DNA of 63,354 bases, the filler included, from Folioceros fuciformis (lineage: Eukaryota), in NCBI GenBank assembly GCA_049999805.1. It is 17 parts of 17 records of this genome, joined end to end, with 100 filler letters (N's around TTAATTAATTAA, not from the genome) between each part and the next. Parts side by side here need not be neighbours in the genome. Positions count along the whole stretch, not along the records: positions 33,464 to 42,837 come from JBNGIO010000278.1; 16 more parts are not named here. One strand, written 5' to 3'. The notes below the pieces were generated by a model. The model searched no databases and was not told the origin of the DNA. It was given only the letters and a program-made list of their open reading frames with translations. Shown piece by piece: positions 11,028-58,170 of the stretch (positions within the stretch are counted from its first letter, which is position 1; each line of letters starts with the position of its first letter). The translations under genes and the position numbers were made by a program.

Positions 11028-12720
11028 GTCTGGCTAATCTCTACCAAGTTCAGAACGTCATGACCCTTGTAGAAGTAAGGATGATTTTTCAGTCCTTGCG
11101 TTTGAAAGAAATTACCTAGGAAAATTTAGGTACCTCCGTTCACGACTCTCACTCCTCGGCTCTAAGATGACAGAGCTGAATGTCGTTGCACAACTGCTGG
11201 CCAGTCTCCCTCAAAGTTGGGAGAGTTTTGCTTCACAACAATACGGGACCCTACAGACAGCTTCGGCTGCTATTGCAGCGGGTGGATCTTCAACACTCAC
11301 AATTGCAGATCTATCAGCTTCAATGTTGCAAGAAGAGACCAGGAGAAGACTGACCACAGCCTCATCTTCAACTGTGAATTTTGACAAAGTGCTCCTAGCT
11401 GAAAGGAAGCCCAAATGGAGTAAGAAGGGAGGGCAGGGCAAGCCTACTAGCATTAGCTACAACAAAGGTGATAAGAAGAAGAAGAAGAAGAAGAAGTAGA
11501 AAGGAGCATGCAATTGGTGTCTAATTGAAGGGCATTGGGAGCGTGACTGCCGTAAGAAAAGGGTAGGTGAACCACGCAGGAACAAGCCTCACGAAACACA
11601 TGTTGCTAAATCGACAAGCAGGACTGTACCTTTAATTATGATAGTCTGCTTCCTTTCTACTCGTACATCATCCTCTTTGTGGTACTTGGACTCCGTAGCA
11701 TCTGCTCACATATGCAACAACATGAGTTGCTTCAAAACATTTGCTGCTGATTCCTCAGGGCAAGTTGTTATAGTGGCTGATGACAGATCAGTTGCTGTGA
11801 AGGGCAAAGGGACAATGATTTTACACACCTCTGTAGGAACAGATTTGCACCTACGGGATGTCCTCTACATACCCTGCATGACCAAAAACCTGGTTTTAGT
11901 GAAGGCCCTTACCTCTAACAACAATGTCACCTTCCTGTTTACCAGACAGGGTTGCGGGTTATTCTAGGGTGACACAACTGATCAATGCATCACTGAAGGA
12001 ACAACGCACGACTTGTATGTATTACAACTCTTACCTGCGGGCTCTTGTACCACCCCGTCGAGTGGGAGTAATGTTGCTTGTGTGGCACACTCTTTTTCTT
12101 CGAGAACACTCTTGTGGCACATGCATTTTGGCCACATGAATCTCCCAAAACTTCTACGTCACACACAGGCTGATTATTTTAGAACAGGTGAAGGTCTCCC
12201 CAAATTAGGGAAACAAATGCAAGTCTATGAGTCTTGTGTTATGGGTAAGCACAACCAGCTCCCGTTCACCAACAGTAACCCTACAAAGAGCAACCAGCCT
12301 GTTAGAATTGTTACACGCAGACATATGTGGACCGCTAAGTGAACCTTCACTAGGTGGAGCAGAGTATTACCTGTTCATCGTTGACGATTACAGTAGGTTC
12401 ACTCACACCTATCCACTGAAGAGGAAAAGTGAGGCATTCACTGTCTTCCAGGACTTCACAACAATGGCTGAATCATAGATAGGATCCAAAGTTCGCTGCT
12501 TACGGACAGATAATGGGGGTGAGTTCAGCTCTAATGCTTTTAAGGACTGGTGTAAAGCTCATGGAAGCATGCGTCAATACACGGTACCTTATACATCCCA
12601 ACAGAATGGGATAGCTGAGAAGAAGATTGGAGACATTGCCAGCGCAGCAAGGACAATGCTCTATGCCTACAATCTCCCCAAGCCTTATTGGGCTGAGGGG
12701 ACTGACTACACAACCATATT
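11028..12720 (+). mobile_element. Ty1/copia gag-protease-integrase, degenerate
   Basis: VAQLLASLPQSWESF, zinc knuckle CNWCLIEGHWERDC, protease WYLDSVASAHIC, LWHMHFGHMN, and integrase LLHADICGP, VDDYSRF, RTDNGGEF, QQNGIAE. Several stops and frameshifts. Confidence 0.93.
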
Positions 12721-13432: not shown

Positions 13433-14086
13433 TCATCCAACATGCTCCTCTTGCAGGAGAGCTCCAATCACGTCCACCAAATTGATATGAGGTGCCTTAC
13501 CTACAGCCACAGCCTTGTCTGCTGCACGGATAGAGGCACCAAAACCAGAAACAAAAGTCTGGTAGCTAGGGGGAAGACAAGTGAGGAGTTGAGCGACGAC
13601 ATCCAACTCCAGAAACTGAGAACCCAGATTCAAAAGTTGAGCCCTCAGTTGTCGAAACTTTATGACGAAAGGTCCAACCTTCTTGCCTTCTTTAAGCCTC
13701 ATTGAGAACAACTCTCCACGGATTGCACACTGGGTAAGGATGTTCTTAGCTTCGTACGTCTACAATAGCTGAGTCCAAATCTCATTAGAGTCTTGCAGGT
13801 AAGCCACATCGAGCAGGAGTACGTCATCCAAGCCACTAATCAAGACTGCACGGGCAACATGATTCACGTTCTCCCGCTTTTCGATTTCATCCGCTGGAGC
13901 AATTCTGGCCAGTTTAGGAAGCGTGTCACTAACAATGCCCCACACATGTCTGGCTTGCAGGGCAGCTGTCATATGCACACGCCATCCATGGAACTTGGAG
14001 CCATTGAACCGGTCACGGTCTTTAAATTCCATGGAGTAGGATGGCTGAGGTATCACTGGCACTGGTGGAAGAGGGGGATTACCTCC

Positions 14087-14138
<52 letters not shown>

Positions 14139-14162
14139 TCTGCTACCACCTCCTGAAGCCAT
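13433..14162 (-). mobile_element. Ty1/copia gag fragment with a poly-G tract
   Basis: DRFNGSKFHGWRVHM...EIWTQLL*TYEAKNI...FSMRLKEG...VAQLLTCLPPSYQTF. Related to the gags at 2980 and 11028. Confidence 0.88.
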
Positions 14163-14587
14163 TCTGACTTACTTTGATGAGATTATCAGGTGCTCACGAG
14201 TGATCAAGCTGATTGCACAAGGTACTCTTCTTGAAGTAAGTCGAAATGCCAAAGGGAAGCAGAGAGGAGGGGCAGAGGAGAAAGTGCAGCAAAGGTCGAT
14301 GAAGAGGTGTATGCGAAAGGTCAAATGTCACCAGACATTACGCTCTTCATCGGTTGACAGTTGGGGATTGTGAATTGTTGACGTGGGGTGGCACAGCATG
14401 TCACTTTGCAGGGTCGCATCCCGTGAATGCCTGACGCAGGCAGACACCTCCATCTTGAGGCGCCTCCCGCTAGGAAGCACGGTTGGGACACCGAAGCTGC
14501 GGACGCGCCACCCTTACCGCGATGAAGGCGATGCTTGAGATCAAGGTTTCGTTGATCCTGAGCATCCAGATTGGGTTTGTCACCTCA

Positions 14588-16274
14588 AAAGACTATATAC
14601 GGTTTGAAGCAGTCCGCTAGGAAATGGTACAAAACTATTGATAAGTACCTCAAATCCATTGGTTTCCTTGAGAATCCCGGAGATGCCAATGTTTACTTCT
14701 ACTGCAAGGATGGAAAACTCGTTGTTCTCGCCTTGTACGTCGATGATGCCATCCTCGCATCCAATGATCCGGGCTTGTTATCCTGGGTCAAAGATATGTT
14801 GCATCAAAAGTTCGATATGAAGGATATAGGGGCACTCACCTTTGTCCTTGGAATTCAACTTGACGCAATATGGCCTCTAGCACTGTTATGCTCCACCAAA
14901 CCAAGTATATAGCAGAGACTTTGCATCGTTTTCACCTTGATGCTGCCAAGCCTGTCTCTACTCCCATTGTTGCAGGCCTAAAGCTTTCCCTTGATCAGTG
15001 CCCCCAGACAGCTGAGGAGCGTCAAGCCATGGCTAGGGTTCCTTATCGCCATGCCGTGGGTTGCTTGAACTACATCAGTTGTTGGACTCGGCCAGATATT
15101 CAATACGCCATTAGTTCTGTCTCCCAGTTCTTGGATAACCCTGGCCAGGCCCACTGGAGTGCGGTTAAACGAGTGTTGCGCTACCTGAAAGGCACCATGA
15201 CACACGGCCTATGCTTCCGAGGGCGAGATAAAGAGCCTACCTTGTGTGGATACTTCGATGCAGACTGGGCTACAGACCCAGATGCCAGGAGAAGCATATC
15301 AGCCTATTGTTTTACTCTAAATCATGCTGTCATTCACTGGAGCTCTAAGAAGCAAGCCTCTGTTGCTTTGTCGTCAACTGAGGCCGAATATAAAGCTTTG
15401 ACCGAGGGTGCCAAGGAAGCTGTATGGGAACGATGTTTCTTGGAAGGTCTTGGTTATCTGCAGTCACAGCCGACTCCGATTTACTACGACAACATGTCCA
15501 CAATAGCCATGACTGCCAACCCACACTTCCACGCACGTACAAAACATATCGAAGTGCATCACCACTTCATCAAACACTCTGTGGAGCAGAAGCAAGTGAA
15601 AATTCAGCATGTGTCCACAAACTTAAACATGGCAGACCTTCTGACGAAGTATCTACCCGCTAGCAAGCACTATCAACATATGGAAGCAATGGGCGTACAA
15701 GCCTGCACCGATCCTCAGCCCTAATTCCTATGCCACTATACCCAGCTGCAAACTATGGTGGATGAAGCCTCAAGCCCAACACAATCGCATACTGCAGCTA
15801 TCAGGTCACTTATCTATCATGTGGTAGCGAGCTCGCAGTAGCGTATTTGAACTGCACCTGCAGCTCACTCTCCTCAAGATGGAGCGCTGGAGTGTTTTCA
15901 ACCCTGTTTAATAATAGCCAGATTTGCACCCGGCACTCCCAGCTAGCGAATTGCCATCGCTGCTCCGTTGTGAATTCTCTTTCTCCTGGGTGGCTGTTCG
16001 ATGGTTGGCCCGCTGTTGTGCGAGCTCTCCGTCTCCTGTTGCATCTTTGTTCTTCTCGCCAGTGCTGGTACAAGAGGTAGATTGAGATCACAAAGGAGCA
16101 GAGCGCGAGACACTGAGCTAGTGACCCTGGTATCGTTGTTCTTCTCGCCATGCTAACCAGTGTGCCCCGTTTACGGGGGCATGTTAGAGTAGAGCCCCGT
16201 TATGGTTCCTACATATAAACGGACCAACTGTTAGCTGATGTTTACTAATATTTAGTTTATATGAATAGTCGTGA
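14588..16274 (+). mobile_element. Ty1/copia RT-RNase H, 3' region, PPT and start of 3' LTR (16182)
   Basis: KTIYGLKQSARKW, LYVDD, TRPDI, DADWA, SSTEAEY and RTKHIE, with one frameshift near 14870 and a stop at 15724. GGGGGCA is followed by TGTTAGAG. Confidence 0.95.
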
Positions 16275-16374
16275 NNNNNNNNNNNNNNNNNNNNNNNNNN
16301 NNNNNNNNNNNNNNNNNNTTAATTAATTAANNNNNNNNNNNNNNNNNNNNNNNNNNNNNNNNNNNNNNNNNNNN

Positions 16375-17835
16375 ATATCTTGCAAATGGGTGTTCAAACT
16401 CAAACTCAATGCCCAAGGAGAAATTGCTAGGTATAAGGCCAGGTTGGTGGCACGTGGCTTCACAAAGGTCGAGGGTCTCGACTACCAAGAAACATTTTCT
16501 CCAGTCGTGAGGACACAGTCCATCCGCATGATTTTGGCCCTTGCTGCTGAATTTGACCTAGAGCTTTATTAGATGGATGTAAATACTGGTTTCCTCTATG
16601 GATCACTTGACGAGGATCTGTACATGACACAGCTAGAGGGATATGAGGATAAAGCATACCCGAACAAGGTCTGCAAATTGTTAAAGACAATATATGGCTT
16701 AAAGCAAAGCAGCAGAGTGTGGTACCTGAACATCCATGTGTTCCTCTTGAGCCAATCCTTCTTGCAGAGTGTTGCAGACAGTAATGTCTACAGACTGGTA
16801 AAAGGCGCAAGCTTTCTTATACTCGCCCTCTATGTAGATGATGTAATCATGGCTACTAATGATAACAGGCTGTTAGCAAGCGTAAAGGAGATGCTGAGCA
16901 CGAAGTACGACATGAAAGATATAGGGGAGCTCAAGTTCTGTTTAGGGATACAGCTCCTTCGAGTTAGATCTGAAGGACTTCTCATCATACCCCAGAATAA
17001 ATATATCCAACAGCTGCTGAATAAATTCAAGCTCGATGAGGCACGTCGAGCATCTACTCCATCTGCCCTAGGAGCTAAACTTACAAGACTACAGTGTCCT
17101 CAGTCTGCTGAAGAATAGAAAGAGATGGTAGAAATCCCCTACCGTCATGTTGTAGGCAGTCTTCTGTTTGTTGCCAATTGGACTCGTCCAGATATACAAT
17201 ACTCTGTTAGCACCCTGTCACAATTTCTAGAGAGACCTGGTCGAGCTCACTGGGTAGCAGCTAAACGAGTATTTAGATATCTGAAAGGGACCCAGTCCTA
17301 TGGACTTGTCTATAAAAGCAGTGGACAGGGACAGCTTACTTTAAGGGGATTTACTATTGCTGATTGGGCATCAGACAGTGACAGCCGCAAGAGTTTAGCT
17401 ACATACTGTTTTCTATTCGCATCTGCGGCTGTAAGTTGGAGCTGCAAAAAGCAGACATAAAGTGCTTTATCATCGACAGAAGCTGAATATAAAAGCTTGA
17501 CAGATGCCTCGAAAGAGGTAGAATGGGAACGTACCTTCCTACAAGACCTTGGTCAACAGCAGACAGTAGCAACCCCACTCCTGTGTGACAACATGTCAGC
17601 ACTTGCCCTGGTTGCAAACCCTCGTTTTCACGCAAGGACAAAGCATATCGAGATACGGCATCACTACATCAGGGATGTAGTTGAACGGGGAGTTGTGAAG
17701 GTTGATTATTTGAACACAGAGGAGAATACTGCAGACATACTAACCAAGCCCCTGCCTAAATATAAGCACTATTTACACATGGCAGGACTTGGTCTACAGG
17801 ATTTCTCAGTATATTTCAAGGATCAGCTGGTTTGA
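16375..17835 (+). mobile_element. Ty1/copia RT-RNase H, degenerate
   Basis: YKARLVARGF, DYQETFSPV, MDVNTGFLYG, YGLKQS, LYVDD, TRPDI and RTKHIE, with in-frame stops. A G-rich tract follows at ~17855. Confidence 0.95.
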
Positions 17836-32048: not shown

Positions 32049-32762
32049 CTATTTGTGCATCAAGTATGTTGCCAAGTTGCCAAGTGTGTCATTCATGGAT
32101 TGGAGTAAAGTCACCTTCTGCGCTTCAATTGCCTTGTACTCTTGTAATAAACATTCTATGTGCTTGGCTATCTGTTCCATAGTTGCCAGTCTTGGGTCTC
32201 CCTTTCTTGCCTTGTTCTCTTTTTGGCCACCTATTAACGGGGCTTGACCATCTGACTCCTGGTGTATAGGCTCACCATCTAGTGGTGGCTCAAGTTTACT
32301 CTCCAAACCATCTGTGACATCCCAAAAAGTAGAGCCCATGGTAGAGTCCATAAAGCCCCCCCCCTCGGGCATAGCAAATGCTCTAGGAAGGGAGCTGGCA
32401 TGTGCATGGCAATTGACCACATGACGTTTACCATGGTATTCATCCATGAGATAAAAAAACTTACATTTATTAGACCTTCCATGCCCACTTGTCTTGTTCT
32501 CGTCTTTGTCCTTCCTGCAATTGTTCATAAGGCTCTTGTGCATCTCACAACGTGCCTTAGAATCCTTGTCGAAATTCAGGCAGATCGCACACAATCTCGT
32601 GTAGAGCTTGTTCCACACATCGATACCTTGCTTGGGTGCTTTGTTGAAATCCTCCTCCATAGAACCCCTAAGGTGGATCAAGTGGATGGTATGGTGTTTA
32701 GTCCATTGTGGACCCCTTCCACCACTTGTCCTTCGAACCTGATCCTCCCCTTCAAGTCCCAA
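32049..32762 (-). mobile_element. Myb/SANT (trihelix)-like partner ORF of the Harbinger element
   Basis: QWTKHHTIHLIHLR...DVWNKLY...CKFFYLMDEY with a C-terminal coiled coil. Convergent with the transposase on the same contig. Confidence 0.82.
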
Positions 32763-34335
32763 GCATTTTTTGCTTTTCCCCGTACGCTTCTTGACCCTCT
32801 GCCAGTGTCCTATGAATTTGGAACCTCATGACCAGTTTCTAGGTCAATAACATTGCCTAGTGCAGGCCGTTTGAAACTAGAGCCTAGCATGACACTTCCA
32901 AGCAGAGGCATTGAGAATGCTTGCTGCTCATGAGGGGAGCATCCTTGTGATATTTGTTGACTTGAAGGTTGGCTCCACGTCTAAGAGGACTGTTCAAAGT
33001 TGTAGCTTTGAACTGTTGACTCCCCTCCTAAGCCAAATAGATAACTTGAAAAAGTTTGGGAAGGTCGTCTTTGTAGTGAAGACTCACCACTATGACCTTG
33101 TTGCCTAGCCATAGCCAAACCTAAAAGCCTAGAAACCTGCCAAACTTGTTGAGATAGAGAGCTTGTTATGCCAAGCCAAGGTTAGCCAGAAACTTTAGAG
33201 AGCCCGTTGTGCCATCCAAAAATTTGATTGCCACTGAATACCTTGGAATTACCTCACAACAAGGCTGCAAGCGCGTGGCGACGATGGGCAGATCCCTACA
33301 CACAACACACACGAAGTGAAGGACTCGGCTCTTCGGCGGGCACTCTTCTGCGTGGCTCAACAGNNNNNNNNNNNNNNNNNNNNNNNNNNNNNNNNNNNNN
33401 NNNNNNNTTAATTAATTAANNNNNNNNNNNNNNNNNNNNNNNNNNNNNNNNNNNNNNNNNNNNGCGCATCTGTGTTTCGGCATGTGCAACTAAGTTGGTC
33501 TCGGAGTTTCTCATGATCGTGTTTGTCCGTAACTTAGCTCCGGTGCGAGCCAGCGTCTCAACTTACTACTTTCACGGTACGTCCTAACGTGAATCCCTTT
33601 TTTGCTTGCTGGCGATCTGCGACCTTCGGGCTCGGGGCTCCTGCTCATGGATTAGATTGTCTGCAGGAGGAGGACCTGATGGCGGAGAATCTCAAGCTGG
33701 ACGAGGCTAGGAAGCAGTAGCAGCTCAAGGCTGAGGCGCAGAGGGATGAGTCTCACTGCCACAAGGAGAGTGCAAGGAAGGTGAGTCACACGCCCCAGGC
33801 TCTTTCCGCCGCATTGGGTGAAACCCTAGTGTTGCAGGGAACGGGTAGAGCCACATGGCCTCCAGCTTGGTCTAGCCTTTCGAAGCAAGTGAAGCGCACC
33901 AAAATGTAGTGATTACCACTGCAGATCTAGACGACGCGATAGCATAAGAACGGGCCTTTGCTCGTATAAAAGATCATCCATCCCAAGCCACCTCCACCTG
34001 GCCGCACACAGACCCGCAGCTCAAGGTGGGAGGTTGCAAAACCTTGCTCCCTCAGGGGCAAGGCATTCAAAATCGAAGGACCAATGTTTTGTTCAACACG
34101 TCACCACTCTCGGAAGGTCGTATAGACACTTCAAGATAGTGCGAGGTTGCAAAATCCTACTCATCTTGGAGAGGTGCTGAGATCTGATGGAAGACGAAAG
34201 CGACCTAGGTGATTGATCTGGAACCCCACTCCCTGGACTTGAGTTGATGGACCACTTTGAAGCCAGAAACTATACCTTCCCGCGCTCTGTGGACACTCCT
34301 TAATTCCCAGGTGGAGACCCGACCCGACAAGACAA

Positions 34336-34441: not shown

Positions 34442-36154
34442 TCAGAGGTGGAGGACACCAGATCTGGCAGTTAGAGCTGGTGTGAAGAACGGGGCAGCAC
34501 CAACGCTTCCGTAGTGTCCTTTGTCGTAGCCACCTGACGGGGCAAAGTAAGCGCCGTTGAGGAAGAGATCTTTGTTCGAATGACAGCTCCAGTGGCTCCA
34601 GCCGCCAGCCTCATGCTTGGTCACCTGCCAGATGAATTGAGGAACATTAGAGTAAGTGGGAAAACAAGAATTGTACAAAGGCTAGGAGGTGTGGCTCACC
34701 TGCTTAGCTCCTGCAGCCACATAGCGGTTGCCTTCGCTGAGAATGGTGGGATCTCCACTTCCACCAATTGCGTAGATGCCCCAACCATACGCATAGTCGT
34801 TGTTGATGACATGGAACTCGCCAAAGCGGCAGCGGGGCATCCTCTGCACGAGATTGGGTCCGAAGGTGTTGTAGGCAATGGTGACCTTCATATTCCTGTC
34901 GTCGGTGAAGGAATCGCTGTGACCCAGAAGCATCACCTGCGAGGACGAAGAGGGGCCAATTTATAAGCCAATCAAACAGCTGGAACCAGGAGAAGGGAGA
35001 GAGAAGAAGCCAAAGCAAAACATAAACCTTGTCGTGGTCGGAGAAATAGTTGTTGGAGATGGTGACGGCTGTAGAACCGTGGATGACATCAATGAGACCG
35101 TCAGCGGCGTGCCTGAGGGTGCAGTGGTCAATCCAAATGTGAGATCCTCCAAAGACAGTGATAGCATCCCCGTCAGAGCCACCCCGGTGGCCGGTGTGAG
35201 TGGTGTTGCTGATGACATCCCCGCTGTGGCCCGGAGCGCAGTTCTGAAAGGTGATGGACTCCACGATTACATGCGACACATACTGTAAGGTAAAACAGGG
35301 CGCTCCGTTGCCCACAGACACCTTCCTCCCGCGGCCGTCGATGGTCTTGTAGCCCTGGATGATGAGCTCGTTGTCGAGCTTGAGGTCCAAGTCCTTAGCG
35401 AAGATTATCCACAGCGGCTGAGGCTGGATGACGCCGTACCTGAGCGTCCCGGGGGCTGGGTTGACAGCGTCGTCGCCGCCGTCTGTGACGACGTAGTAGG
35501 CACCGCCTTTCCCTCCCGCAGCATCAGACCCGAATCCAACGGCGCAGTCTGCAAGCTTCTGCCTGTCGTCCTCCCAGTTGGGTCGCAGCCAGCAGTTGTC
35601 GATGGGATTGCCCTTCCCGTCTTTGCTACCACCCTTCGGAGGGGAGGGCACTGGGACACGGGGCTTCTTCTTCTTCTTCTGCACCTTCTTGCTTGTCTTG
35701 TTCTTCTTGGTCTTCGCCTTAGCGGACTTCTTCTTCTGCAGTCCCTCCATCGTGGAGAGCCTCCGCCACAGCACGGAACTTCTGCGCTTGCATCGCAACA
35801 GCCGGTGTCAACAACGTTTCTCCCGGATAAACGTTCGCCAAAAACCCACAAAAACCCACGAAAACCCACAAAAGCTACAAACCGGGCAAATGTTCTGGCC
35901 CCAAATTCCCTTTACCTCACGTCCTCATGACCATCCTCCTCCTGGTCGGCGACCTCCGAGTCAGTCCCGTTCCTGCTTCCGGTTGCAACCTCCAGCTCTT
36001 CCCCGACGACGTCCGCATCGGATTCCGCCTGCAGGTCGAGGTGCCCTACCCCAAGCTCCCGCTGGGCGACCGCCCCGAGGCGCAGGCACGAGGCGAGCAG
36101 CGGGAGGAGCAGCAGCACCGACCAGAGGGCGGTGAAGCACTTGACGCGCGACAT
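34442..36154 (-). CDS. Secreted pectate lyase (PL1 family), 4 exons, 470 aa
   Basis: Exons 36154-35916, 35781-35028, 34936-34700 and 34624-34442, all with GT-AG introns in consistent phase (1413 nt). Signal peptide, [36 protein letters not shown] and QRMPRCRFG. Confidence 0.95.
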
Positions 36155-37528
36155 GGCGGGAGAGGGAGAGCAGCAGGCCGGGTGATCCAAATCACCGGTG
36201 GGAGGGAGGCGCCGGCGTCACAAGTGCAGCATTGTGGACAGCAAGCGAGGCCGAGAAGAAGATACTGCGAGCAATCGAAGGGCATGTCCCGCTCTTGTAC
36301 CCCTCGCCTCGCTCAGCCTCCCCCTCAGCTTGCACGGACTGCAATTTGGATGTACCCAGCCAGGCCAACACGATTACGTAAGGTCAGATCAGGTCAGGTA
36401 AGGTCAGGCCAGGTCAGGAGAATCGAGAAGGAGACGTCTCCAACTGGAGACCGTCGGACGCGACCCAGCGGCTTGGCTGCTGTGATGCAACCTCCATATC
36501 CACGAGGAGCAAACATGGGCAGTGGAACGGCGAAATGCGTTAGCGCAACCCCGTCACCCATCCGGATTTGCTCCACCGGCTCCCGCTCTGCCCTTCCCTG
36601 TTCACACACTGTCATTTCTGGTTTTTTCTGCTCCCTTTCCTTTCCTGTCGGAGCGCCGAGGAGGAGGACGTACGAGGGTGCTGTACGTATTACGTATAAT
36701 ATCACCCAATCGTCTGCGTAGCCGTATGCCAGGGTCCCTTTAACCCCCTTCATATCTGTCATCCTGGAGCCCTGCCCCGGCCCGCCCTACGGCTCCTGCC
36801 AGACGACGTACGGAAGCACGCGGCGGCACTGGAACAACCGGCGGCAGCCGGTGGAGCCGCATGAGCGAGCTCTTGCACGCCGCGCTTTCCGTTCTCAACT
36901 GCCATAACTGTCAGTCCGTCAAGAGACGGGTTGCGCCTTTGGGGCCTGGGCAAAGCCCTTTGGGAATCAGACTACGCTTCATTTGTGAGTGGCCCGCGCT
37001 TAAGTCAAGCCCCCAGATTAACGTGTACACACGAAAACAAAAACTAAGCACATAAAAGATTCACTTAAAGTAGAGCATATCTATGTGATTACATTAAATC
37101 ATCTAGTTAAGTCTTTGCACTTTCTGGACCTCTATCTTTCCTTGTACGAAAACATAGTAGTGTGGAATCTCGGAGACATAAATGTGCTTTCACTTGATGT
37201 GCTCTTTTTTATTTCTCTTTCAATTCCTCCGCCAAAATCTGTATCTCAATGACTCTCCCTCTTTAGTTCCTTCTCGACAAATTCTCTCACACTTCCAACA
37301 ACCATTTGGAAGGACAATATAGACGATACTAGTTGTGCAACTTGCAGCTAGTAATCAAGAGCATTGTACGAAGTGGGAACAATTATCGATAGTTGCACAA
37401 GTACTAAAGCATTATGGGCATAAAGTACTTCAGGCATGTTGTACTCAAGCTTCACATCTGTGTTCCATCTCATAATCATAACATGGACCAATGACCCCAC
37501 TTGACTGTACGTGTATGCATTACCGAGA

Positions 37529-37867
37529 GCTTCACTTCATGTTGTCCATGTCCTTTGTAGTCGAGCGTCACTCCTTGTTGTCCTGTCCATGTCCTTTGTA
37601 GTCGAGCGTCACTCCTTGTTGTCCTTTTGTAGTCAAGCTTCACTTCACGATGTCCTTTGTAGTGAAGGCTCACTGCACATTGTCCTTTGTTATCAAGCTT
37701 CAACTCACAATGTTCTTTGCAATGGAGCCTCAATCTCTCTTCACATTGTCCTTCGCAATCGAGCCTCAACCTCACTTAACATTGCTCTTTGCAAACAAGC
37801 CTCAACCTCACACTACATTGTCCTTTGTAGTCAAGCCTCGACGTCACTTCACGTTGTCCTTTGCAAT
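37529..37867. repeat. Minisatellite with mostly 30- and 36-bp units (CTTCACATTGTCCTTTGTAGTCAAGC core), about 10 copies
   Basis: Recurring TGTCCTTTG...TC(A/G)AGC visible throughout the interval. Confidence 0.85.
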
Positions 37868-39777
37868 TTAAACCATAGACTGTGTACTTTTCTGTGTCAC
37901 GATGAACATTATGATGCCTTACATACTTTCTTTCAAAGAAGATCATATCTACCTACAAGAGCCACACTATCTCATAGTATGCATCCTCTAAGTAATTAAA
38001 TCATTAGCAAACACACTTCACAACATCTGTATTATTTCATACTTAGTGTCCTCTTCCCAATCCAAGCTTGGTTCCATTTGAGTGACATTTCAAATCTAAA
38101 AATTAAATGTATTGTATGTGACTATATGCTTATTGGTCTTGATGTTAAGACTTCCAACATTTTGAAGCATTCATCATTTGGTTTCTTAGACTCTATTTGG
38201 CACAAGCTCATTCTATCTCACAAGCAAGGACATCACTTTTAACTAAAATTCATCTCTTCTTGCTCTTCTTGGAAAACTGAAGACCTTTTAATTAAAATTC
38301 ATCTCTTCTTACTTTTCTGGGAAAACCGATGACAAGTTGATGACAAGTTGCAGTTGATGACAAGTTGCAGTCTGCTCTTACACTGAGACCATTCAACAAG
38401 TGCCTGCAAGACGTGAGTATAACAGTCCTTTGCCTTCAGGCAACAACCCTTGCTCAAGGAGCGAATTGGCAACACTTCCACGTATCAGAGTTGACGCCTC
38501 ACTCAATTCTTTCATATGCATTAAAATGAATAATCTAGACTGTGACAAGCCAGCCATTTAACCTGACCGTTTATCTCCGGCACAAGAGTCTTGACACAAC
38601 ACAAGTGCCGCAAAAGCAGCCCATAAGAATGATGAAAAAGGGGGGGACTTGAGCACACCTCCCATAGTTAGGTTTGCTACATTCCTCGAGGAGTCGTCCG
38701 ACAACCTCATCAGCAAAAAGTTTCGCAAGACAGATAAATTGCACTAGCTCTTCAAGGCGAATCATTGCAACGTTGCAAACCCGTGTGCCAGAGCATCATC
38801 ATCATAATCCACATACTGATTTGGGCACATGGACCGCGTCCATACTGTCTTTGCAGGTACCTGCCGTCAAAGCATCAGGTAACTACTTTCTTCCACGAGT
38901 GGAAACAAGCTTGAAGATGGCAGTGCCCGGATACGTCTCCCCAAGCGATGAGGTGATCACACAACCCTTGGCCTGATAACACAAACAGCTCAATTCCTCT
39001 TGCCAAGACCTGGCAGATAACCAGGAAGATGCCAAAACCTTTCCTTGTCCTCAGTCATTTGCATGTAACCAAGTTTACATAGGGGTTGGCTGGGGATGCG
39101 CTCACTTACTACCCACGACAACAGTTCTGAAATCAGCATGGGAAAGGATCTCCTTACCTTACCCTCAGCTGTTACAGGTGGTGCACATCATCTTCGTGCA
39201 AATGCTGCTTGACAAGTTGTTTCCATTTAAAGGCGACTAAGTGGGACAATTATGGATCGAAAGTCTTCAAAGTGTGCACTACCTGTCTCCCTAAGGCTTG
39301 GAACACATAAGCCTCACATTTGCATGCGGAAATGCAACATTTCCACATGCCTGAAGTGCAAGCGTGTAACTAAGGCAGACATCATTGGCAGGAGTCCGTC
39401 GATGAGACACAGCCACGGTGCTAATCTTTCCTGAGCTGTTGAAGTTCCAGCTTGCTTTCATTCTGTGTGATGTGAATGTGCTGTCTGTAAAGGGGACTGT
39501 TCCCCATCCAGCAAGTAGGCATTACCACAAAGAATGTGCCGCCTGTAGCATCAACTAGGATATCGTAGGCTCCATCTTTCTTCATCAGATAAAGCCCCCA
39601 GCACCTGCTGGTTTCCGAACTCTGTCGTTGCAGGTAGCACATGAAACACATCGCCATCGCCTTTTTCATGGTACACCACAAAACAGAGTGGATCCACGAA
39701 GGAACAAAACTCACCACCTGGACACTGGCCTTCGCGTTTTCGAGGTCACCAGCCGACCACTCGTTATTTTCTCGTTC

Positions 39778-42700
39778 TCACGGTCGGCCCTTGCAGCTGC
39801 AGAAGCCAGCTGCAAACCGATGCACACGGTGGGCATCCCTCACAACAATGTCTCTCTTCTCAACCCTGGACAAGACCTCAGTGGAGCTATGGCAGTCACT
39901 GCACATGCGTAAGTTCTTAGTCACCAGCAGAGGTGTGCCGCTGGGAGTGTGCAAGAGACCGTAGGCCAGAGCAAGCTTTTCAGCATGCCCGCAAAGCATG
40001 TCGTTCTTTTCCTTCTCAGACAGAGGCTTCAGCACCAGCTTTGTGTGGGGTGTGTGACCCCCATCCTGCTGCAGGCGGAGGTTCATGCTCGCTAATTTGA
40101 GGGAAATATCGTCCCTGGTTTCTCCAACCATGAATGTATGTACCTCGTTCTTGATCTCGATGCCTGCGACTGCAAGTTTCTTGTTGGCCCCTGCTGCTAT
40201 TCTCCGAGTTTCTATCCTTTCTACGTCTGTCCACCGACCTGCGTCTGCGTACACATTGGCCATGAGGACATATGCGGACGCCTGCTGGGGGTCCAAGCTG
40301 ACTAGGCTTTCAAAACACCGGGTCGCACGCTCGATGTCTCCGTGGCTTTTGCAAGCATTCAGCAGAGATGTCAAGCCCACGTCATTGTCTTGGCTTTCAC
40401 ATGACAGTAGCATCTTCTCTGCCTCAGCTAAATGGCCTGCACGCCCGAAAAGATCAATCATGCAGTTGTAGTGCGCCACAGTAGGTTTGATGCCGTGTTG
40501 TGCAACCATGGCTTCGAAGTACTTACGACCCTCTTCTACCAGGCAGTCATGACTGCATGCTATGAGAAGGCAAACGAACGTAGCATCGTCGGGCTCAATA
40601 CCGGCTGCTAACATCTCCTCAAAGCAAGCCAGGGCTTTTTGACCTTCCCCACAAGTTCCAAACCCGGATATCAGGGCTGTCCATGTCGCAACAGTCTTTA
40701 TGGACAAACTATCAAAAGCCCTACAGGCATCCTCCATTTCACCACATTTCGCATACATGTCCACAAGGCAGTTACCCAGCAGGATATCATTTTCTAGCTC
40801 TCCTCTCCCCGCGAGCTCTGAGTGCAGCTGCCTCCCAAGCTGTATGGCCCCGCCGCTTCCACAGGCCTTCAACAGGCCAGCAAAAGTACAGCGGTCAGCC
40901 AAAATCAGGCCCTCCTGTTCCATTTGTCCATACAGATCAAGTGCCTCTTGGCACAGTCCTTGCTGTGCATACCCTGCTATCAAAGCATTCCACGACCCAA
41001 CATCTTTTAGCGCCAAACTGTCAAAGACCTGGCGTGCATCTTCCAGTTCGCCACACTTGGCATACATGTCGACCAGGCAGTTGCCCACCAGCGTGTCATT
41101 TTCTAGCTGTCCTCTTTCTACGATCTGTAAATGCAGCTGCCTGCCCTCTCGTAAGGCACCAGTGCTCCCGCAGGCCTTGAGGAGGCAGGCAAAAGTAACA
41201 TGGTTAGCCAAAACCAGGCCCTCTTGATCCATTTGAGCATACAGATCAAGAGCCTCTTGGCAATGCCCTTTCTGTGCGTACCCACCTATCAGGGAGGTCC
41301 AGGTCACCACATCCTTTGAACCCAAACTGTCAAAGACCTTCCGTGCATCTTGGAGTTCGCCACATTTTGCATACATGTCCACCAGACAGTTGCCCACGAG
41401 AATGTCGCTCTGCAGCTGTCCTCCTTTCAGAATCTGCGAGTGCAGCTGCCTTCCCTCTCGTAAGGCACCAGTGTTGGCACACGCCTTCAGAAGGCAAGCA
41501 AAAGTGACATGGTTAGCCAACACCAGGCCCTCCTGCACCATTTGGCCATACACAACAAGAGCCTCCTGACACAGTCCTTGCTGTGCATACCCAGCTATAA
41601 GGGCGGTCCACGTCACCACATCTTTTCTTTCCAAGCTGTCAAAAACCCGGCGTGCTTCTTCTAGTTCGCCACATTTGGCGTACATGTCCACAAGGCAGTT
41701 GCCCACCACCAAGTCGCTTTGCAGCTGTCCTCTTTCAACTATTTGCGAGTGTAACTGTCTGCCTTCATGTAACGCACCAGTTGCTGCACATGCCTTCAGA
41801 AGGCAAGCAAAAGTGACGTGGTTCGCCAGAACCAGTCCCTCTCGCTCCATTTCTCCGTACAACGCAAGCGCCTCCGGACCCAGCCCATGATCTGCATACC
41901 CAGCTACAAGGGCAGTCCATGTCACCACATTCTTCGTGGACAAGCTGTCAAAAACCCGGCGTGCAGCTTCCAGTTCACCACATTTCGCATACATGTCCAC
42001 CAGGCTGTTCCCGATGAACATATTGGACTTAATACCACTGTGCAACACATCAGAGTGCACCTTTCTGCCAGATTCCAAATCGGCTGCAAGAGAACACGCT
42101 TGAAGAGCAGCTATGTAAACGTGGGCATCTGCCTTCACATCCGAGCTCCGCATCCTGTGGTACAATTGTATAGCCTCATCAGGTTTCCCGTGTTTAGCAT
42201 GTGCAGAGATTATGGAAGACCACATGAAGGTATCTGCTTTGCCCACCCTGGTGAACACATCCATGGCCTCTTCTAGCCGGCCTCCAGATGCATACATGCG
42301 CAAGATATGGTTCCCCAAGAATGTATTCGACTCATACCCAAGCTTCAGAGTCAGATCATGAACGCGTCGACCCGCAACCAGATCCTTCTTAGCGGCACAC
42401 AGTTTCAGCACATTATAGAACAAAGTCTGAGATAGAGGACACTCTGCATGCACCAACAATTCCAGGGCTTCCACAGCCTCAATGAGCTTTCCATCGTGAC
42501 ATAACGTGTTCACCATCCCTGTTGTTACGCAACCTGGCATATTTGCAAAGCTAGACTTGGAAGACGATGCACCATATCCTGTCTGCATATCCCAAGCAAT
42601 CAGCTGCTCATCCACCCAAGCCGGCTTGGAAAACCTGTCCAACCAGAGGACCTCGCCGGAACCCTTACGCCGGAAGTCAGGAGCACTGGCGCTCCTCTTC

Positions 42701-42837
42701 CCCCGCCTGTTATCCCACCACATGCTAGGGTCCAGAAAAAATTGCCGCCACAGTAGCTCCTGCTCCTGGCGCCGGCCATCGCTGGAAACTCCTTCCCCGG
42801 CTAAAGGTGTTCTGGAAAGCCCTGGGCTCCTTACACC
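39778..42837 (-). CDS. PLS-class PPR-E1-E2-DYW protein of DYW:KP/GRP type with an N-terminal OSB-like PDF motif; 5'-truncated by the gap
   Basis: Intronless frame open from the contig edge (42837) to TGA. About 21 P/L/S motifs, E1/E2, and a deaminase with HAEKLA, CSDCH and terminal CSCKGRP. LWRQFFLDPSMWWDNR...APDFRRK...LWL...PAWV precedes the PPR tract. Confidence 0.96.
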   Translation of the reverse strand, partial: GVRSPGLSRTPLAGEGVSSDGRRQEQELLWRQFFLDPSMWWDNRRGKRSASAPDFRRKGSGEVLWLDRFSKPAWVDEQLIAWDMQTGYGASSSKSSFANMPGCVTTGMVNTLCHDGKLIEAVEALELLVHAECPLSQTLFYNVLKLCAAKKDLVAGRRVHDLTLKLGYESNTFLGNHILRMYASGGRLEEAMDVFTRVGKADTFMWSSIISAHAKHGKPDEAIQLYHRMRSSDVKADAHVYIAALQACSLAADLESGRKVHSDVLHSGIKSNMFIGNSLVDMYAKCGELEAARRVFDSLSTKNVVTWTALVAGYADHGLGPEALALYGEMEREGLVLANHVTFACLLKACAATGALHEGRQLHSQIVERGQLQSDLVVGNCLVDMYAKCGELEEARRVFDSLERKDVVTWTALIAGYAQQGLCQEALVVYGQMVQEGLVLANHVTFACLLKACANTGALREGRQLHSQILKGGQLQSDILVGNCLVDMYAKCGELQDARKVFDSLGSKDVVTWTSLIGGYAQKGHCQEALDLYAQMDQEGLVLANHVTFACLLKACGSTGALREGRQLHLQIVERGQLENDTLVGNCLVDMYAKCGELEDARQVFDSLALKDVGSWNALIAGYAQQGLCQEALDLYGQMEQEGLILADRCTFAGLLKACGSGGAIQLGRQLHSELAGRGELENDILLGNCLVDMYAKCGEMEDACRAFDSLSIKTVATWTALISGFGTCGEGQKALACFEEMLAAGIEPDDATFVCLLIACSHDCLVEEGRKYFEAMVAQHGIKPTVAHYNCMIDLFGRAGHLAEAEKMLLSCESQDNDVGLTSLLNACKSHGDIERATRCFESLVSLDPQQASAYVLMANVYADAGRWTDVERIETRRIAAGANKKLAVAGIEIKNEVHTFMVGETRDDISLKLASMNLRLQQDGGHTPHTKLVLKPLSEKEKNDMLCGHAEKLALAYGLLHTPSGTPLLVTKNLRMCSDCHSSTEVLSRVEKRDIVVRDAHRVHRFAAGFCSCKGRP

Positions 42838-42937
42838 NNNNNNNNNNNNNNNNNNNNNNNNNNNNNNNNNNNNNNNNNNNNTTAATTAATTAANNNNNNN
42901 NNNNNNNNNNNNNNNNNNNNNNNNNNNNNNNNNNNNN

Positions 42938-53200: not shown

Positions 53201-54691
53201 AGCCACTAGCAACTTGGGGTCCAGTTTCGTCTCCATGGTGAAATCTAGAATTGTGACGTCCGCCCTCTGTTCAGTTGCAACAGACTTCATATCCACTTGT
53301 CTCTGTTCAGACGTTGCCTCAGGATTATTCCTGACATCCTGTGCTGACGACACAGGACGACCAGCTAATGTGATATCCGCACCTGTAGATGGCGGTGCCG
53401 AGGTAGGCCTCAAAGTGGATGCAGATAGAGATAGCTGGCACTTTCCTACTGGACTCTTCGTCAAAACTGAAGGTGAATGTCCGCCAGTAGAGGTAGGCGT
53501 GAAGAAGCCATCAGAGTCTGGACTAAACGGTTCGGATGACAGATCTGGAGATGAACCCCGGGATGAGCTTGTCTCCTTGCTTGTAACACCCCGCTTTGCC
53601 AAGTAAGCACTGGCAGCCGCCACAGGGGTTGACGCAGCAGATTTAGCTGGTAAGGCTGGAGGTTGAATCATCTGTCCCTCGTCGGCACCCGCATCACCAA
53701 CTTTCTGCATATTGAGGAACAGCTATTGATGAACAACCTTCCGAAGATGACGTCTAGATCTCTGTTCCATGGCAAGTGTGCAGGAGACGAGTTGACCTAT
53801 GCACAGGAAGACAAGGAAGCAGGTGCAGATCGCCCTCACCTGCAATTGAATTTCGGAAGAGGGATCTATCGAGCCCTCGCTTGATAGAACTGAAGACCTA
53901 ATGGGACTCTGAGCTGCTTCCTTGACCACAGGACTAGAAGAGGTGGCCAAGCTTTGAGATGTTTCAGATGCAGGGCCCAGAACCCGGGCCTGAAGAGATG
54001 GCGAGGAAGAACCGGGAGATTGGTCCTCATCATCATCCGTAAAAGCCGCAATCTCATCATCCTCATCGCTCATAAGAGCAGCAACCAGAGCCTCCCTTGA
54101 CTCCGGCTGCGAGATTGGATTACTTACAGACACGCAAGTCGCAGATGTGCCCACGCCCGATTTGCCATGGCCAGAAACGCTTCCGATGCGGCCCGGAACA
54201 TTTTTCTTGCTGAATGGTCCAATGCTAATGAACAAACTTGGAGAGACACCACTGTGGTTCTTCCTGGCCAGTGCCAGAGGAATGCTCGTGCACACGAGAG
54301 CATCCGCAATAGCGTAGTCAGCAAGATCAAGGACTGCCGTACCAATTTTCTGGCCCTTCAAACTAGATTCGAAAAGGCTGAAGATGACGCATTTCTTCTG
54401 GAATTTCCATGGCGCGGAAACTTTGCTGCTCCTTGACTCCTCTCTATAGAGAGTGGCTGGCAACCTGAAGGACTCGTGAAACACAATCCTCCCTCCATCT
54501 GGAGTGTCCTCAGGAGTCACAGCTCGAGTGCTCCCCGTCCGCTTCTCCCCCCGTTGCCATTGGAGGATGACCTGAACAGTGGATTTGACATTGTCCGCCC
54601 TTGGCCATGGTTTGATGTCCTGCACTTGGAGGTAGAAGTCAACTGCGAACGAGGGTCCTTTTTTGCTCTTCGACCTCAACCCTAGAACCAT
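50243..54691 (-). CDS. NT-C2 (EEIG1/EHBP1 N-terminal-like) domain protein with a C-terminal dilute-like region, 8 exons, about 1130 aa
   Basis: Exons 54691-53840, 53704-52602 (alternative acceptor 53722), 52285-51979, 51875-51633, 51454-51281, 51170-50967, 50881-50768 and 50638-50243, all GT-AG and in phase. IKPWP...LQWQRG...LDLADY, PEHGGSAHKVHAPARRL, RLTFWWSN, RLCPVRAAGHDCGCL and PDEFFPDP match a conserved plant family. Confidence 0.92.
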
Positions 54692-56115
54692 GACTCCGGT
54701 GAGGAAAACGTGCTCGATGCATCCGATAATCTGCCGCAGATACAGATGCCCAAACAACGGCGCGTATGCAGCAACTAGTCCCGAGGTGCGGGCACAGCGG
54801 GAGAGGGCCGAGATATAGCAGCAGCCAACGCCGGCAAAAGGGTGGACAGAATGTCATCTGCCCTAAACGTGACAGGGGATTGACAATGCATTCGACATAT
54901 CACAGACGACAAACGTCTCACATAGCCGTGTCTCTTCTGTCCACTAATCGATCAGGAGAGAACGAGGACGATGACGGGACAAGAAAAACTGCGAGTGCTT
55001 TTGAACTGCTCGACCAGCTACCGACGACCATTGCCACAACACATCAAACGACATATAGTCGGAACATCTCCTGATGGCAGACAGAAGGAACTCAACGCCC
55101 AAGACTCGGAATGAGGGCCGACACAGACACGCCAGATCAGCCAACGGTGCCCGTCAGATGTAAGGTTGTAGTGCCTCCCCTTCCGACCTTTAACCCCAAA
55201 ATTTGGAATGGGTTCTGTGCGTTTGTTTTAAAAATTATCATGTTTTGTTTTGTTATTATTTATTTATCACTCCTCTAAAATTCCAGAAAATATGGGAGGC
55301 GTTCCAAATGGAGTTCTATTTAATGCACTTTGTTCCATCCCAATCGACCGCGAGATGGAAACAAGGTGCAATTTCTACACAAGGAGGGCGCCCGCATGTT
55401 GGCTCCCTCCACTCTTTGCCTCCTTGTGCTAATGCAAGAGGCTAGCACCCTCCCCCCTTACCTCCTTGTGCTAATGCGAGGGGGGGGCACCACCATGTCA
55501 ATGCCCATTCGCTTCGTATGTGAAATGTGCTCGCACAGCCCCCACTTTGCTAGGAAGCCTTTTCCCTATTCACAACTTCAATTTCTATGCTTCATCTGCC
55601 TTCAATTGCTATGCTTCATCTGCCTTCAATTGCTATGCTTCATCAGGCTTTTACTACTCCTCTATTGCTTTCCCTCTAAATTGAACAAAAACCAATCTAC
55701 TTGTTAGTTGTCCAACTCTCACTTCCCTCACAGCCTTAGCTAGCTCCTTTGGTAGTCATCATCTTGAGCAATTATATGCAATTGTAGAAATGAGCATTGA
55801 GGCATGCCTCGAGAAAACCCCATAACACACAAGAGTGTTCTCTCTAGTGGCCACTCTTGACCATTGTAGTGTCACATAGTAGGTTCTTTTCTTACCAAGG
55901 AGGGATTACTCTAGCTTCACATTGATGCTCCTTCCACCATGTACTCCCCACGGTTACCCCATTGGGAGGTTGCTTAAGAAATGATTGTTACTATAAAATT
56001 ATTATTTTTGAATATTAAAAAAGAGACAGAAAGTCCCATCTACTCTAGAGATAGGAGGAACATCAAAGGCATGGCCAAAGGCCAACAAGGGTACTAGCCT
56101 CTTCAAACATCATTC

Positions 56116-56994: not shown

Positions 56995-58170
56995 TTGACA
57001 TTTTGTTTAACTTCATCTATTGAAGGACTATCTCACTGGTTTGTTGATTCTAGAGCAACTCCTCATGTTTGTAACAAGCGAGACCAGTTTGTAGTTTTTT
57101 ACTCACAGTCCACTCTACGATCAGTTTTTGTAGGAGATTCTACAGGCATACAAGTTAAGGGTTCATGTATGGTGTGGTTACCTTTGTTAGATGGATCCTT
57201 CCTTACTTTAGAAAATGTTCTTTAGATACCTAACATGAGCAAAAATTTGTTCTCAATACATGCCATTGTTCAAAGCACTAGATATGAATTTCGGTTTGAA
57301 GATGAGAGCTACTACATTTACCTTCTGTTTGATCTTGACAATTATATGGCAAGGGCTACTCTTGTTGATGACTTGTATCACCTAGATACAATCTTAAAGA
57401 GTAATGTTAGAGCTTTTCTATCATCTATCAATGCCCAAGCTCACCTTTGGCATGCTCGCTTGGGTCATGTCAATCGTTCCAAGTTGGATTTGATATCACA
57501 ATCAAACTCTTTTCGTAAACGTCTCTCGTCTTGTTTCAAGCACTTGCCAGTCTATAGCTCTTATGTGTTGTCCAAGCAAAAGGAATTTCCATTTCTAATA
57601 AAATCAGCCACTTGTGCAAGAGAAATTTTGGAGTTAATTCATGCAAACATTGCATGCAAGTTACCCATCAAATCACTTGGAGGGGCAAAAGTATTATCTC
57701 ACCTTGATGACTACTCTTGTTATACTTGGACTTATCCTTTGGCATTGAAAAGTGAGGTTTATGATGTTCTGTCCACTCGGATTCCTATTATTCAGCACCA
57801 CACAAGACAGCAAGTTAAATGTTTCCGTACTAACAATGGTGATGAGTTCACAGGAAGCAATGTGGTTGATTTGTTCCAACAATATGGAATCACCAAAAAG
57901 TTATCCATTCCTTATATTCAACAACAAAATTGCGAAACTTTAAGGAAAAATCAAACCTTGATGGGGATGGTTCGTAGTGTGTTGTCTTGGTTGGCACTTC
58001 TGAAATTTTACTAGGCTGAGGCAATTGTGAATGCTACTTATACACTGAACAAAGTTCTTACATCAATTGTTTCACATCGAAAACCACATGGGGCTATGTG
58101 GGGTAGCAAACCAAGCCTTCTTCACTCGCGGGTGTTTGGCTTGCTTGCTTATGCGTATTTTTTTGAACTC
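56995..58170 (+). mobile_element. Ty1/copia protease-integrase, degenerate
   Basis: WFVDSRATPHVC, LWHARLGHVN, LELIHAN, DDYSCYTW, RTNNGDEF and WGSKPSLLHSRVFG. Catalytic residues are mutated. Confidence 0.9.

Follow-up and report, generated by a model that had tools for sequence, protein, structure and literature searches.

We analysed a stretch of DNA of 63,354 nucleotides (filler included) from Folioceros fuciformis (NCBI GenBank assembly GCA_049999805.1), consisting of 17 parts of 17 records joined end to end and referred to below as the window. On its minus strand, in the part derived from JBNGIO010000278.1, lies a nuclear, intronless gene that encodes a PLS-class pentatricopeptide-repeat (PPR) protein with a DYW:KP domain of the GRP subtype. 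An earlier note on this DNA had described positions 39778..40182 as encoding a GRP-ending DYW:KP deaminase and hence a candidate U-to-C RNA-editing enzyme. These positions hold, on the minus strand, 134 residues and a stop codon, and the motifs that had been named (KKLAVAGIE, HAEKLA, CSDCH, here within KNLRMCSDCH, and CSCKGRP) all translate from them. The frame to which they belong is far larger than that span, so the anatomy first given was correct in its motifs and mistaken in the extent of the gene (Table 1).

The frame is intact over more than 1,000 codons. Translation from the first visible ATG, at 42723, gives a protein of 981 residues. Upstream of this ATG a further 38 codons are open, up to the N at 42838, and their translation can still be aligned to the paralogue P0002, the nearest full-length relative, whose residue 75 corresponds to residue 2 of the window protein. 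Since the frame stays open past the first ATG and the alignment with P0002 continues there, the genuine initiation codon would be located in or beyond the N bases, together with a transit peptide if there is one. Downstream of the TGA the reading frame remains open for 118 codons (39424-39777, minus strand), a stretch in which a Pfam search returned no match. As the TGA falls where the DYW alignment canonically ends, this extension is probably due to chance.

Table 1 Features of the PPR-DYW:KP gene and of the rest of the window. Residue numbers count from the first visible ATG.
Feature	Position	Strand	Basis or remark
PPR-DYW:KP coding frame, uninterrupted	39778..42837	minus	open reading frame translation
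N-terminal leader ahead of first PPR motif	42532..42837	minus	alignment with P0002, P0206 and P0005
PLS tract, 21 PPR motifs (six P1-L1-S1 triplets and P2-L2-S2), residues 65-780	40384..42531	minus	Pfam; hand segmentation
Tandem array, 4.2 copies of a 309-bp unit of 103 aa, equal to one PLS triplet, 79% identity	40705..42009	minus	
E1 motif, residues 781-814	40282..40383	minus	hand segmentation; Pfam E_motif
E2 motif, residues 815-848, last residue K848	40180..40281	minus	hand segmentation; alignment
DYW:KP deaminase domain, GRP subtype, 133 residues (K849-P981)	39781..40179	minus	Pfam, alignment, fold
KP box replacing PG box (K848 K849 L850 A851 V852 A853 G854 I855 E856)	40156..40182	minus	
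HAE: H913 zinc ligand, A914 KP-class alanine, E915 catalytic glutamate	39979..39987	minus	alignment; PMC9478123
K936 = Lys88 in DYW:KP numbering	39916..39918	minus	849 = position 1, so M940 = Met92
CSDCH: C941 and C944 catalytic zinc, H945 structural zinc	39889..39903	minus	alignment to OTP86
C-terminal CSCKGRP and TGA stop (TGA 39778-39780)	39778..39801	minus	
Broken copia-type long terminal repeat (LTR) retroelement pieces (RVT_1, Retrotran_gag_2, Pol_BBD, gag_pre-integrs, RVT_2)	2-667, 11038-12339, 13763-14182, 14562-17115, 57226-58011		
Pectate-lyase-like frame, E 3e-8	34707-35807	minus	likely host exon
Myb/SANT-like DNA-binding frame, E 2e-6	32052-32825	minus	likely host exon
NT-C2 domain frame, E 7e-12	53726-54853	minus	likely host exon

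The PPR tract is recognised by the Pfam families PPR (E = 9e-101) and PPR_2 (E = 2e-96), and E_motif (PF20431) matches residues 794-852 with an E value of 1.9e-13. The P-L-S triplets are followed by E1 and E2, all in register, as expected of the PLS class. The lysine that ends E2, directly before the box of the catalytic domain, is the counterpart of K823 in OTP86. Within the tract, protein identity among triplets 3-5 is 76-80%, and between triplet 6 and these three it is 62-68%, with the remaining triplet pairs at 15-42%; the window protein exceeds P0002 by about one triplet. Judged from these sequences, triplets 3-5 are recent internal duplicates. The repeated triplets have identical code residues (T/N, A/D and N/D), which would impose a periodic A-n-U pattern on the RNA that is read.

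The domain that follows is matched by Pfam DYW_deaminase (PF14432) over residues 889-979 with an E value of 5e-34 and a score of 116 bits, against a cut-off of 24. A phmmer search of solved structures returned a synthetic PPR-DYW protein (9kfx, E = 1e-34), the DYW domain of OTP86 (7o4e, 3.9e-30) and DYW1 (7w86, 1.2e-27). At these scores the identity of the domain is far beyond chance. The zinc ligands and the catalytic glutamate were assigned by alignment to OTP86, which also designates C975 and C977 as structural-zinc ligands; H913, E915, K936, C941, C944, H945, H968, C975 and C977 are all kept, and G979-R980-P981 stand in place of D-Y-W. An AlphaFold model of E2 and the domain, with a mean predicted local distance difference test score (pLDDT) of 93.5, superposes on 9kfx with a template modelling (TM) score of 0.86 and a root-mean-square deviation of 2.2 Å, and also on 7o4e/7o4f (OTP86) and 7w86 (DYW1). 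The modelled fold is, with confidence, that of a deaminase with its gating domain.

Relatives were gathered through word-indexed searches of near-length and of shorter proteins and through a complete HMMER search of 1.84 billion representatives; of its 2,365 hits at E <=0.001 the best 150 were used. From the 204 proteins collected, 28 with a truncated or extended domain were removed and the remaining 176 domains were aligned. The nearest relatives reach a domain identity of at most 74% in the near-length search and at most 71% in the search of shorter proteins. A quick maximum-likelihood tree of all 176 domains unites the window domain with four proteins ending in GGRP (Shimodaira-Hasegawa-like approximate likelihood ratio test, SH-aLRT, 99). 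This five-row GRP clade is nested among domains ending in DRH and lies inside a KP-type clade of 61 rows (98), which comprises all the HAE and HCE domains together with five HSE domains that have WKKPAKAF-type boxes. A more careful tree was computed under LG+C20+F+G4 from the 61 rows of the KP clade together with 30 PG rows drawn at random (91 rows). Here PG and KP rows are split with support of 100/100, the GRP clade is recovered at 99/97 and a 28-row set of GRP and DRH domains at 97/95. When the window domain is forced to join the PG rows, the log-likelihood drops by 53.3 units, and the approximately unbiased (AU) test rejects this placement (p 0.032). Placement in a DYW phylogeny was the check that the earlier note had called for; it puts the domain on the KP side of the split, and the clustering with canonical DYW:PG enzymes that the note had named as telling against its claim is not seen.

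Individual alignment columns point in the same direction. In only four of them a consensus of at least 70% differs between the two classes, namely at A851 (Ala in KP, Gly in PG), A853 (Ala/Ser), A914 (HAE/HSE) and V967 (RVH/RFH), and the window domain has the KP state in all four. The position of K849 is occupied by Lys in 50 of the 61 KP-clade rows and is variable in the PG rows (Glu in 23, Val in 19 and Ile in 14 of 115), while Met is found at M940 in 53 of the 61 KP rows. The HPxx insert, four columns after residue 870 that are filled in 97-100% of PG rows, is empty in the window domain, and a length of 133 residues fits the 132-133 published for DYW:KP domains (PMC11845758, PMC9478123). 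K936 (Lys88), in KNLRMC, is present; this lysine is conserved in PG domains too. The window domain matches 36 of the 36 columns that are conserved at >=90% among the 60 other KP-clade rows. At >=80% conservation it matches 47 of 50, the exceptions being L850, N907 and the GRP-typical E949.

Further residues mark the GRP subtype. Gly at G854 is found in five of five GRP rows and is absent from the 56 other KP rows; Pro at P931 likewise occurs in all five GRP rows, the other KP rows having Thr in this column in 44 of 56 cases. At E949 three of the five GRP rows have Glu, with Lys in 50 of the 56 other KP rows and in 101 of 115 PG rows; the site is K103 in published numbering, which the alignment places four residues past the His of CxDCH. 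G979, R980 and P981 are common to all five GRP rows. Thus, motif, phylogenetic and fold tests back the earlier proposal of a GRP-ending DYW:KP domain and, with it, of a candidate U-to-C enzyme. The printed term 'KPAxA', which the proposal had used for the box, has no occurrence in the literature searched; the pattern itself is borne out by the alignment. The residue preceding GRP is K978 (39790-39792, minus strand), whereas the other four domains of the GRP clade, like most DYW domains of either class, have Gly there.

The second residue of the box requires separate consideration. The earlier note had treated the Pro of the KP pair as the signature of the class and the Leu found here as a natural variant, and it had given the codon as CTT, one transition from CCT, which is what is read at 40174-40176. 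As a class signature the Pro does not hold up: it aligns to the Pro of the PG box and occurs 49 times among the 61 KP rows and 89 times among the 115 PG rows, leaving a different residue at domain position 2 in 12 and 26 rows, respectively. Since Pro occurs at this position in PG rows too and is absent from 12 KP rows, it appears from the alignment to be name-giving and not class-defining, and class membership was judged on other features; the residues that discriminate are the preceding Lys and the two Ala that follow, all three of which are present. The natural variation, by contrast with the signature, is borne out. The non-Pro KP rows have Leu in four cases (counting the window), Ala in four and Ile, Arg, Val and Ser in one each, although the Leu count may be slightly inflated because the relatives were chosen by similarity to a Leu-bearing query. 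The other four rows of the GRP clade have Pro. In the model L850 lies two residues ahead of the first strand. On the evidence of the aligned relatives the Leu is a real and unremarkable natural variant, and the change from Pro is not expected to abolish activity.

We regard the gene product as most likely an organellar site-specific U-to-C editing factor, a reading that, by analogy with characterised systems, we hold to be probable. The architecture PLS-E1-E2-DYW is almost exclusively linked to editing (PMC12733224). By family precedent the protein would be imported into mitochondria or plastids, where its PPR tract would recognise a site of about 20 nucleotides in a single organelle transcript or in a few. 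Each PPR motif binds one nucleotide with a specificity set by its fifth and last residues, and editing takes place four nucleotides 3' of the nucleotide opposite S2 (PMC12733224). By this code, and with L, E1 and E2 left open, the P and S motifs are predicted to recognise U G n C A n U A n U A n U U n Y G n C, from -22 to -4, and the substrate of the DYW:KP domain would be the pyrimidine at that distance 3' of the base facing S2.

The reaction would most likely be U-to-C, as in designer proteins built on the GRP consensus. Two of these, KP2 and KP3, reach U-to-C editing levels of ~26% and ~22%, respectively, in E. coli, with C-to-U undetected in the experiments described in PMC9478123, and lose activity on mutation of HAE or CxxC (PMC9478123). 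In the mechanism that we envisage, K936 (Lys88) would attack C4 of a uridine held at the site formed by the zinc and Glu915. Work from 2024-2025 implicates Lys88 of the active site in a crosslinking attack on uridine C4 (PMC11332814, PMC11713852, PMC11845758), and in plants the resulting conjugate is believed to resolve to cytidine (PMC11332814, PMC11713852). The statement in the earlier note that the chemistry had yet to be settled is therefore partly outdated. Lys88 is essential for U-to-C editing by designer proteins (PMC11845758), and the window protein carries every residue that the Lys88 scheme needs.

A number of points weigh against this reading. Position 2 of the domain is Leu (L850) and not the Pro from which DYW:KP takes its name, and two further columns conserved at >=80%, those of N907 and E949, deviate as well. 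The KP and PG row sets of the 91-row tree were defined from the first tree, sets that coincide with the motif states; its bootstrap had not fully settled (correlation 0.981), and the p value of the AU test is only moderately small. The N-terminus is hidden by N bases, and organelle targeting is what the family would lead one to expect. The target is a prediction from the PPR code. As of PMC11845758, no natural DYW:KP protein had been assayed. Finally, the fern-type designer KP6 performs both reactions, in human cells, and single substitutions can switch the direction of editing (PMC9478123, PMC11845758), so that direction is not securely readable from sequence. It is on account of these last two points, the assays confined to designed proteins and the two-way activity of KP6, that we put U-to-C activity at probable.

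The two-way activity of KP6 also favours the best placed of the alternatives, an organellar editing factor whose KP-type domain would nevertheless catalyse C-to-U editing, or both reactions. Once Lys88 is replaced, KP2, KP3 and KP6 edit C-to-U, and the balance between the reactions is moved by a few substitutions at distal positions (PMC9478123, PMC11845758). The window domain has an intact HxE and CxxC deaminase site and substitutions of its own at positions 2, 59 (N907) and 130 (K978). Against this, Lys88 itself is present as K936, all four KP-discriminating states are in place, and the two GRP-based designers gave no C-to-U editing in either E. coli or HEK293T cells in the data of PMC9478123. 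We consider this alternative unlikely.

The domain might also be catalytically weakened or dead, through the change from Pro to Leu or the long, triplicated PPR tract, so that the gene would be a copy in decay or one that only binds RNA. In the deaminase fold, strands one and two come from the PG-box region, and the lysine in front of it is important for editing (PMC7611903); moreover, the family is huge and consists mostly of dispersed duplicates (PMC13386178), and the recent duplication of triplets 3-5 could be seen in the same light. Opposed to decay are more than 1,000 open codons and the retention of all 36 strongly conserved columns. The box, including L850, is modelled with confidence (mean pLDDT 92 over model residues 31-40), and a residue other than Pro occupies position 2 in the KP and PG domains counted above. 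Additionally, contigs from a related organism (run X4) align to the gene at ~93% identity, the longest piece, a 782-base contig, having 51 differences in 771 bases (40008-40778). The 27 of these 51 that are listed include none at the Leu codon. Over the whole comparison 40 of 117 differences are listed, and two of them, at 42237 and 42279, were dropped because they were seen at high depth in all four runs; the 38 listed differences that are confined to X4 divide into 29 synonymous and 9 non-synonymous changes. This pattern fits purifying selection whether the X4 contigs represent an orthologue or a close paralogue. A weakened or dead enzyme accordingly has, in our view, a low probability.

Ahead of the PPR tract the leader contains a conserved block of about 50 residues, LWR..F..PS.WWDNR...PDFR.K....WLD.F.KPAWVDEQL, which is common to P0002 and P0206 and is found in part in P0005, and which reaches upstream of the first visible ATG. 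A search for homologues of the leader yielded only one further PPR protein. No Pfam family was found for it in a search up to E 1; an Atlas search gave phage families alone, at 0.76-0.80, within the range of noise, and the best match in the PDB, at E 0.21, is no real match. The string 'WWDNR' occurred in one unrelated paper in a literature search. The block may resemble the PDF motif of the OSB proteins, which bind single-stranded DNA in plant organelles.

Two readings make use of this leader. One is a recently remodelled GRP editor, with three near-identical triplets, the Leu of the KP box, the Lys before GRP and the leader as a possible second nucleic-acid-binding module, perhaps akin to the PDF motif. 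We regard it as doubtful. If true, the protein may differ from the consensus GRP designs in target range, editing direction or product release, and it would offer a natural handle on how the native U-to-C reaction is completed without a lasting crosslink. The other, a non-editing or additional role exerted through the conserved leader with the DYW:KP domain secondary, could appeal to the block shared by P0002, P0206 and in part P0005, but the leader matches nothing in Pfam, the PDB or Atlas and the PLS-E1-E2-DYW arrangement is tied almost exclusively to editing (PMC12733224), and we think it very improbable.

To our knowledge, U-to-C is the sole pyrimidine 'reverse' RNA editing known. Enzymes that perform it are wanted as programmable base editors. 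Those assayed so far are consensus-designed DYW:KP proteins, and these stay crosslinked to their RNA. Being natural and intact, and having a PPR tract that is defined, this gene of the GRP type lends itself to tests of how the native reaction proceeds; L850 in turn provides a small natural experiment on the KP box.

The remainder of the window looks like plant nuclear DNA. Among the frames found in it, Pfam detected no second PPR gene. Copia-type pieces occur on both sides of the PPR gene within the stretch (Table 1). The window also contains 32 N runs of exactly 44 bases, paired with a spacing of 12 bases at 16 places (for example 42838-42881 and 42894-42937); these pairs look like masking and not like assembly gaps, and one of them (42838-42937) hides the 5' end of the PPR gene. 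Contigs of run X2, whose RNA nature is a guess, cover the gene and 38562-39919 with zero differences and were not used as evidence of transcription; on 37000-38560, a region into which the DNA runs X1 and X3 extend, they have next to nothing.

Among known systems, the closest are the hornwort GRP-type proteins and the designers KP2 and KP3 derived from their consensus. The GRP and DRH subtypes have both been described for hornworts (PMC9478123), whose chromosome-level genomes hold 1,583-2,308 PPR genes (PMC13386178). The hornwort-like source to which the earlier note had pointed is plausible from the subtype, a support that is indirect. The window protein shares with the GRP type the PLS-E1-E2 architecture, a domain of 133 residues, the missing xHP insert, HAE, KNLRMC, a Glu after CxDCH and the G-R-P end; the comparison with KP2 and KP3 is by their published description (PMC9478123). 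Unlike these two it is a natural protein with a 21-motif tract of its own, and unlike the four other GRP rows it has Leu in place of Pro at position 2 and Lys in place of Gly before GRP. The hornwort DRH type belongs to the same KP clade and likewise has K-P-A-x-A, HAE and the RVH motif. It differs in ending with D-R-H, and in the 56 non-GRP KP rows, DRH included, position 6 is mostly Cys, Phe or Ser and never Gly, with Lys after CxDCH in 50 of 56. A DRH-based designer, KP1, showed no editing according to the supplement of PMC9478123.

The DYW:KP domains of ferns and lycophytes, including KP6, lie within the same 61-row KP clade and share the Lys88-dependent U-to-C chemistry (PMC11845758, PMC11713852), but they form a sub-clade of their own, in which the boxes are of the WKKPAKAF type, HCE or HSE is frequent and the C-termini are different, and KP6 is bidirectional. 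The canonical DYW:PG enzymes (OTP86, DYW1, PPR56 and 9kfx) resemble the window domain in fold, gating domain, both zinc sites, HxE and CxxC, and have in common with KP domains the lysine paired with the catalytic Glu and the Pro of the box. They are set apart by x-P-G-x-S, HSE, the HPxx insert, RFH, Val95, a D-Y-W end and C-to-U catalysis. Publications already cover the subtype, together with its motifs and likely chemistry, and nothing sets the gene apart in kind: it is a further member of the large family described for hornworts, and not a new kind of enzyme.

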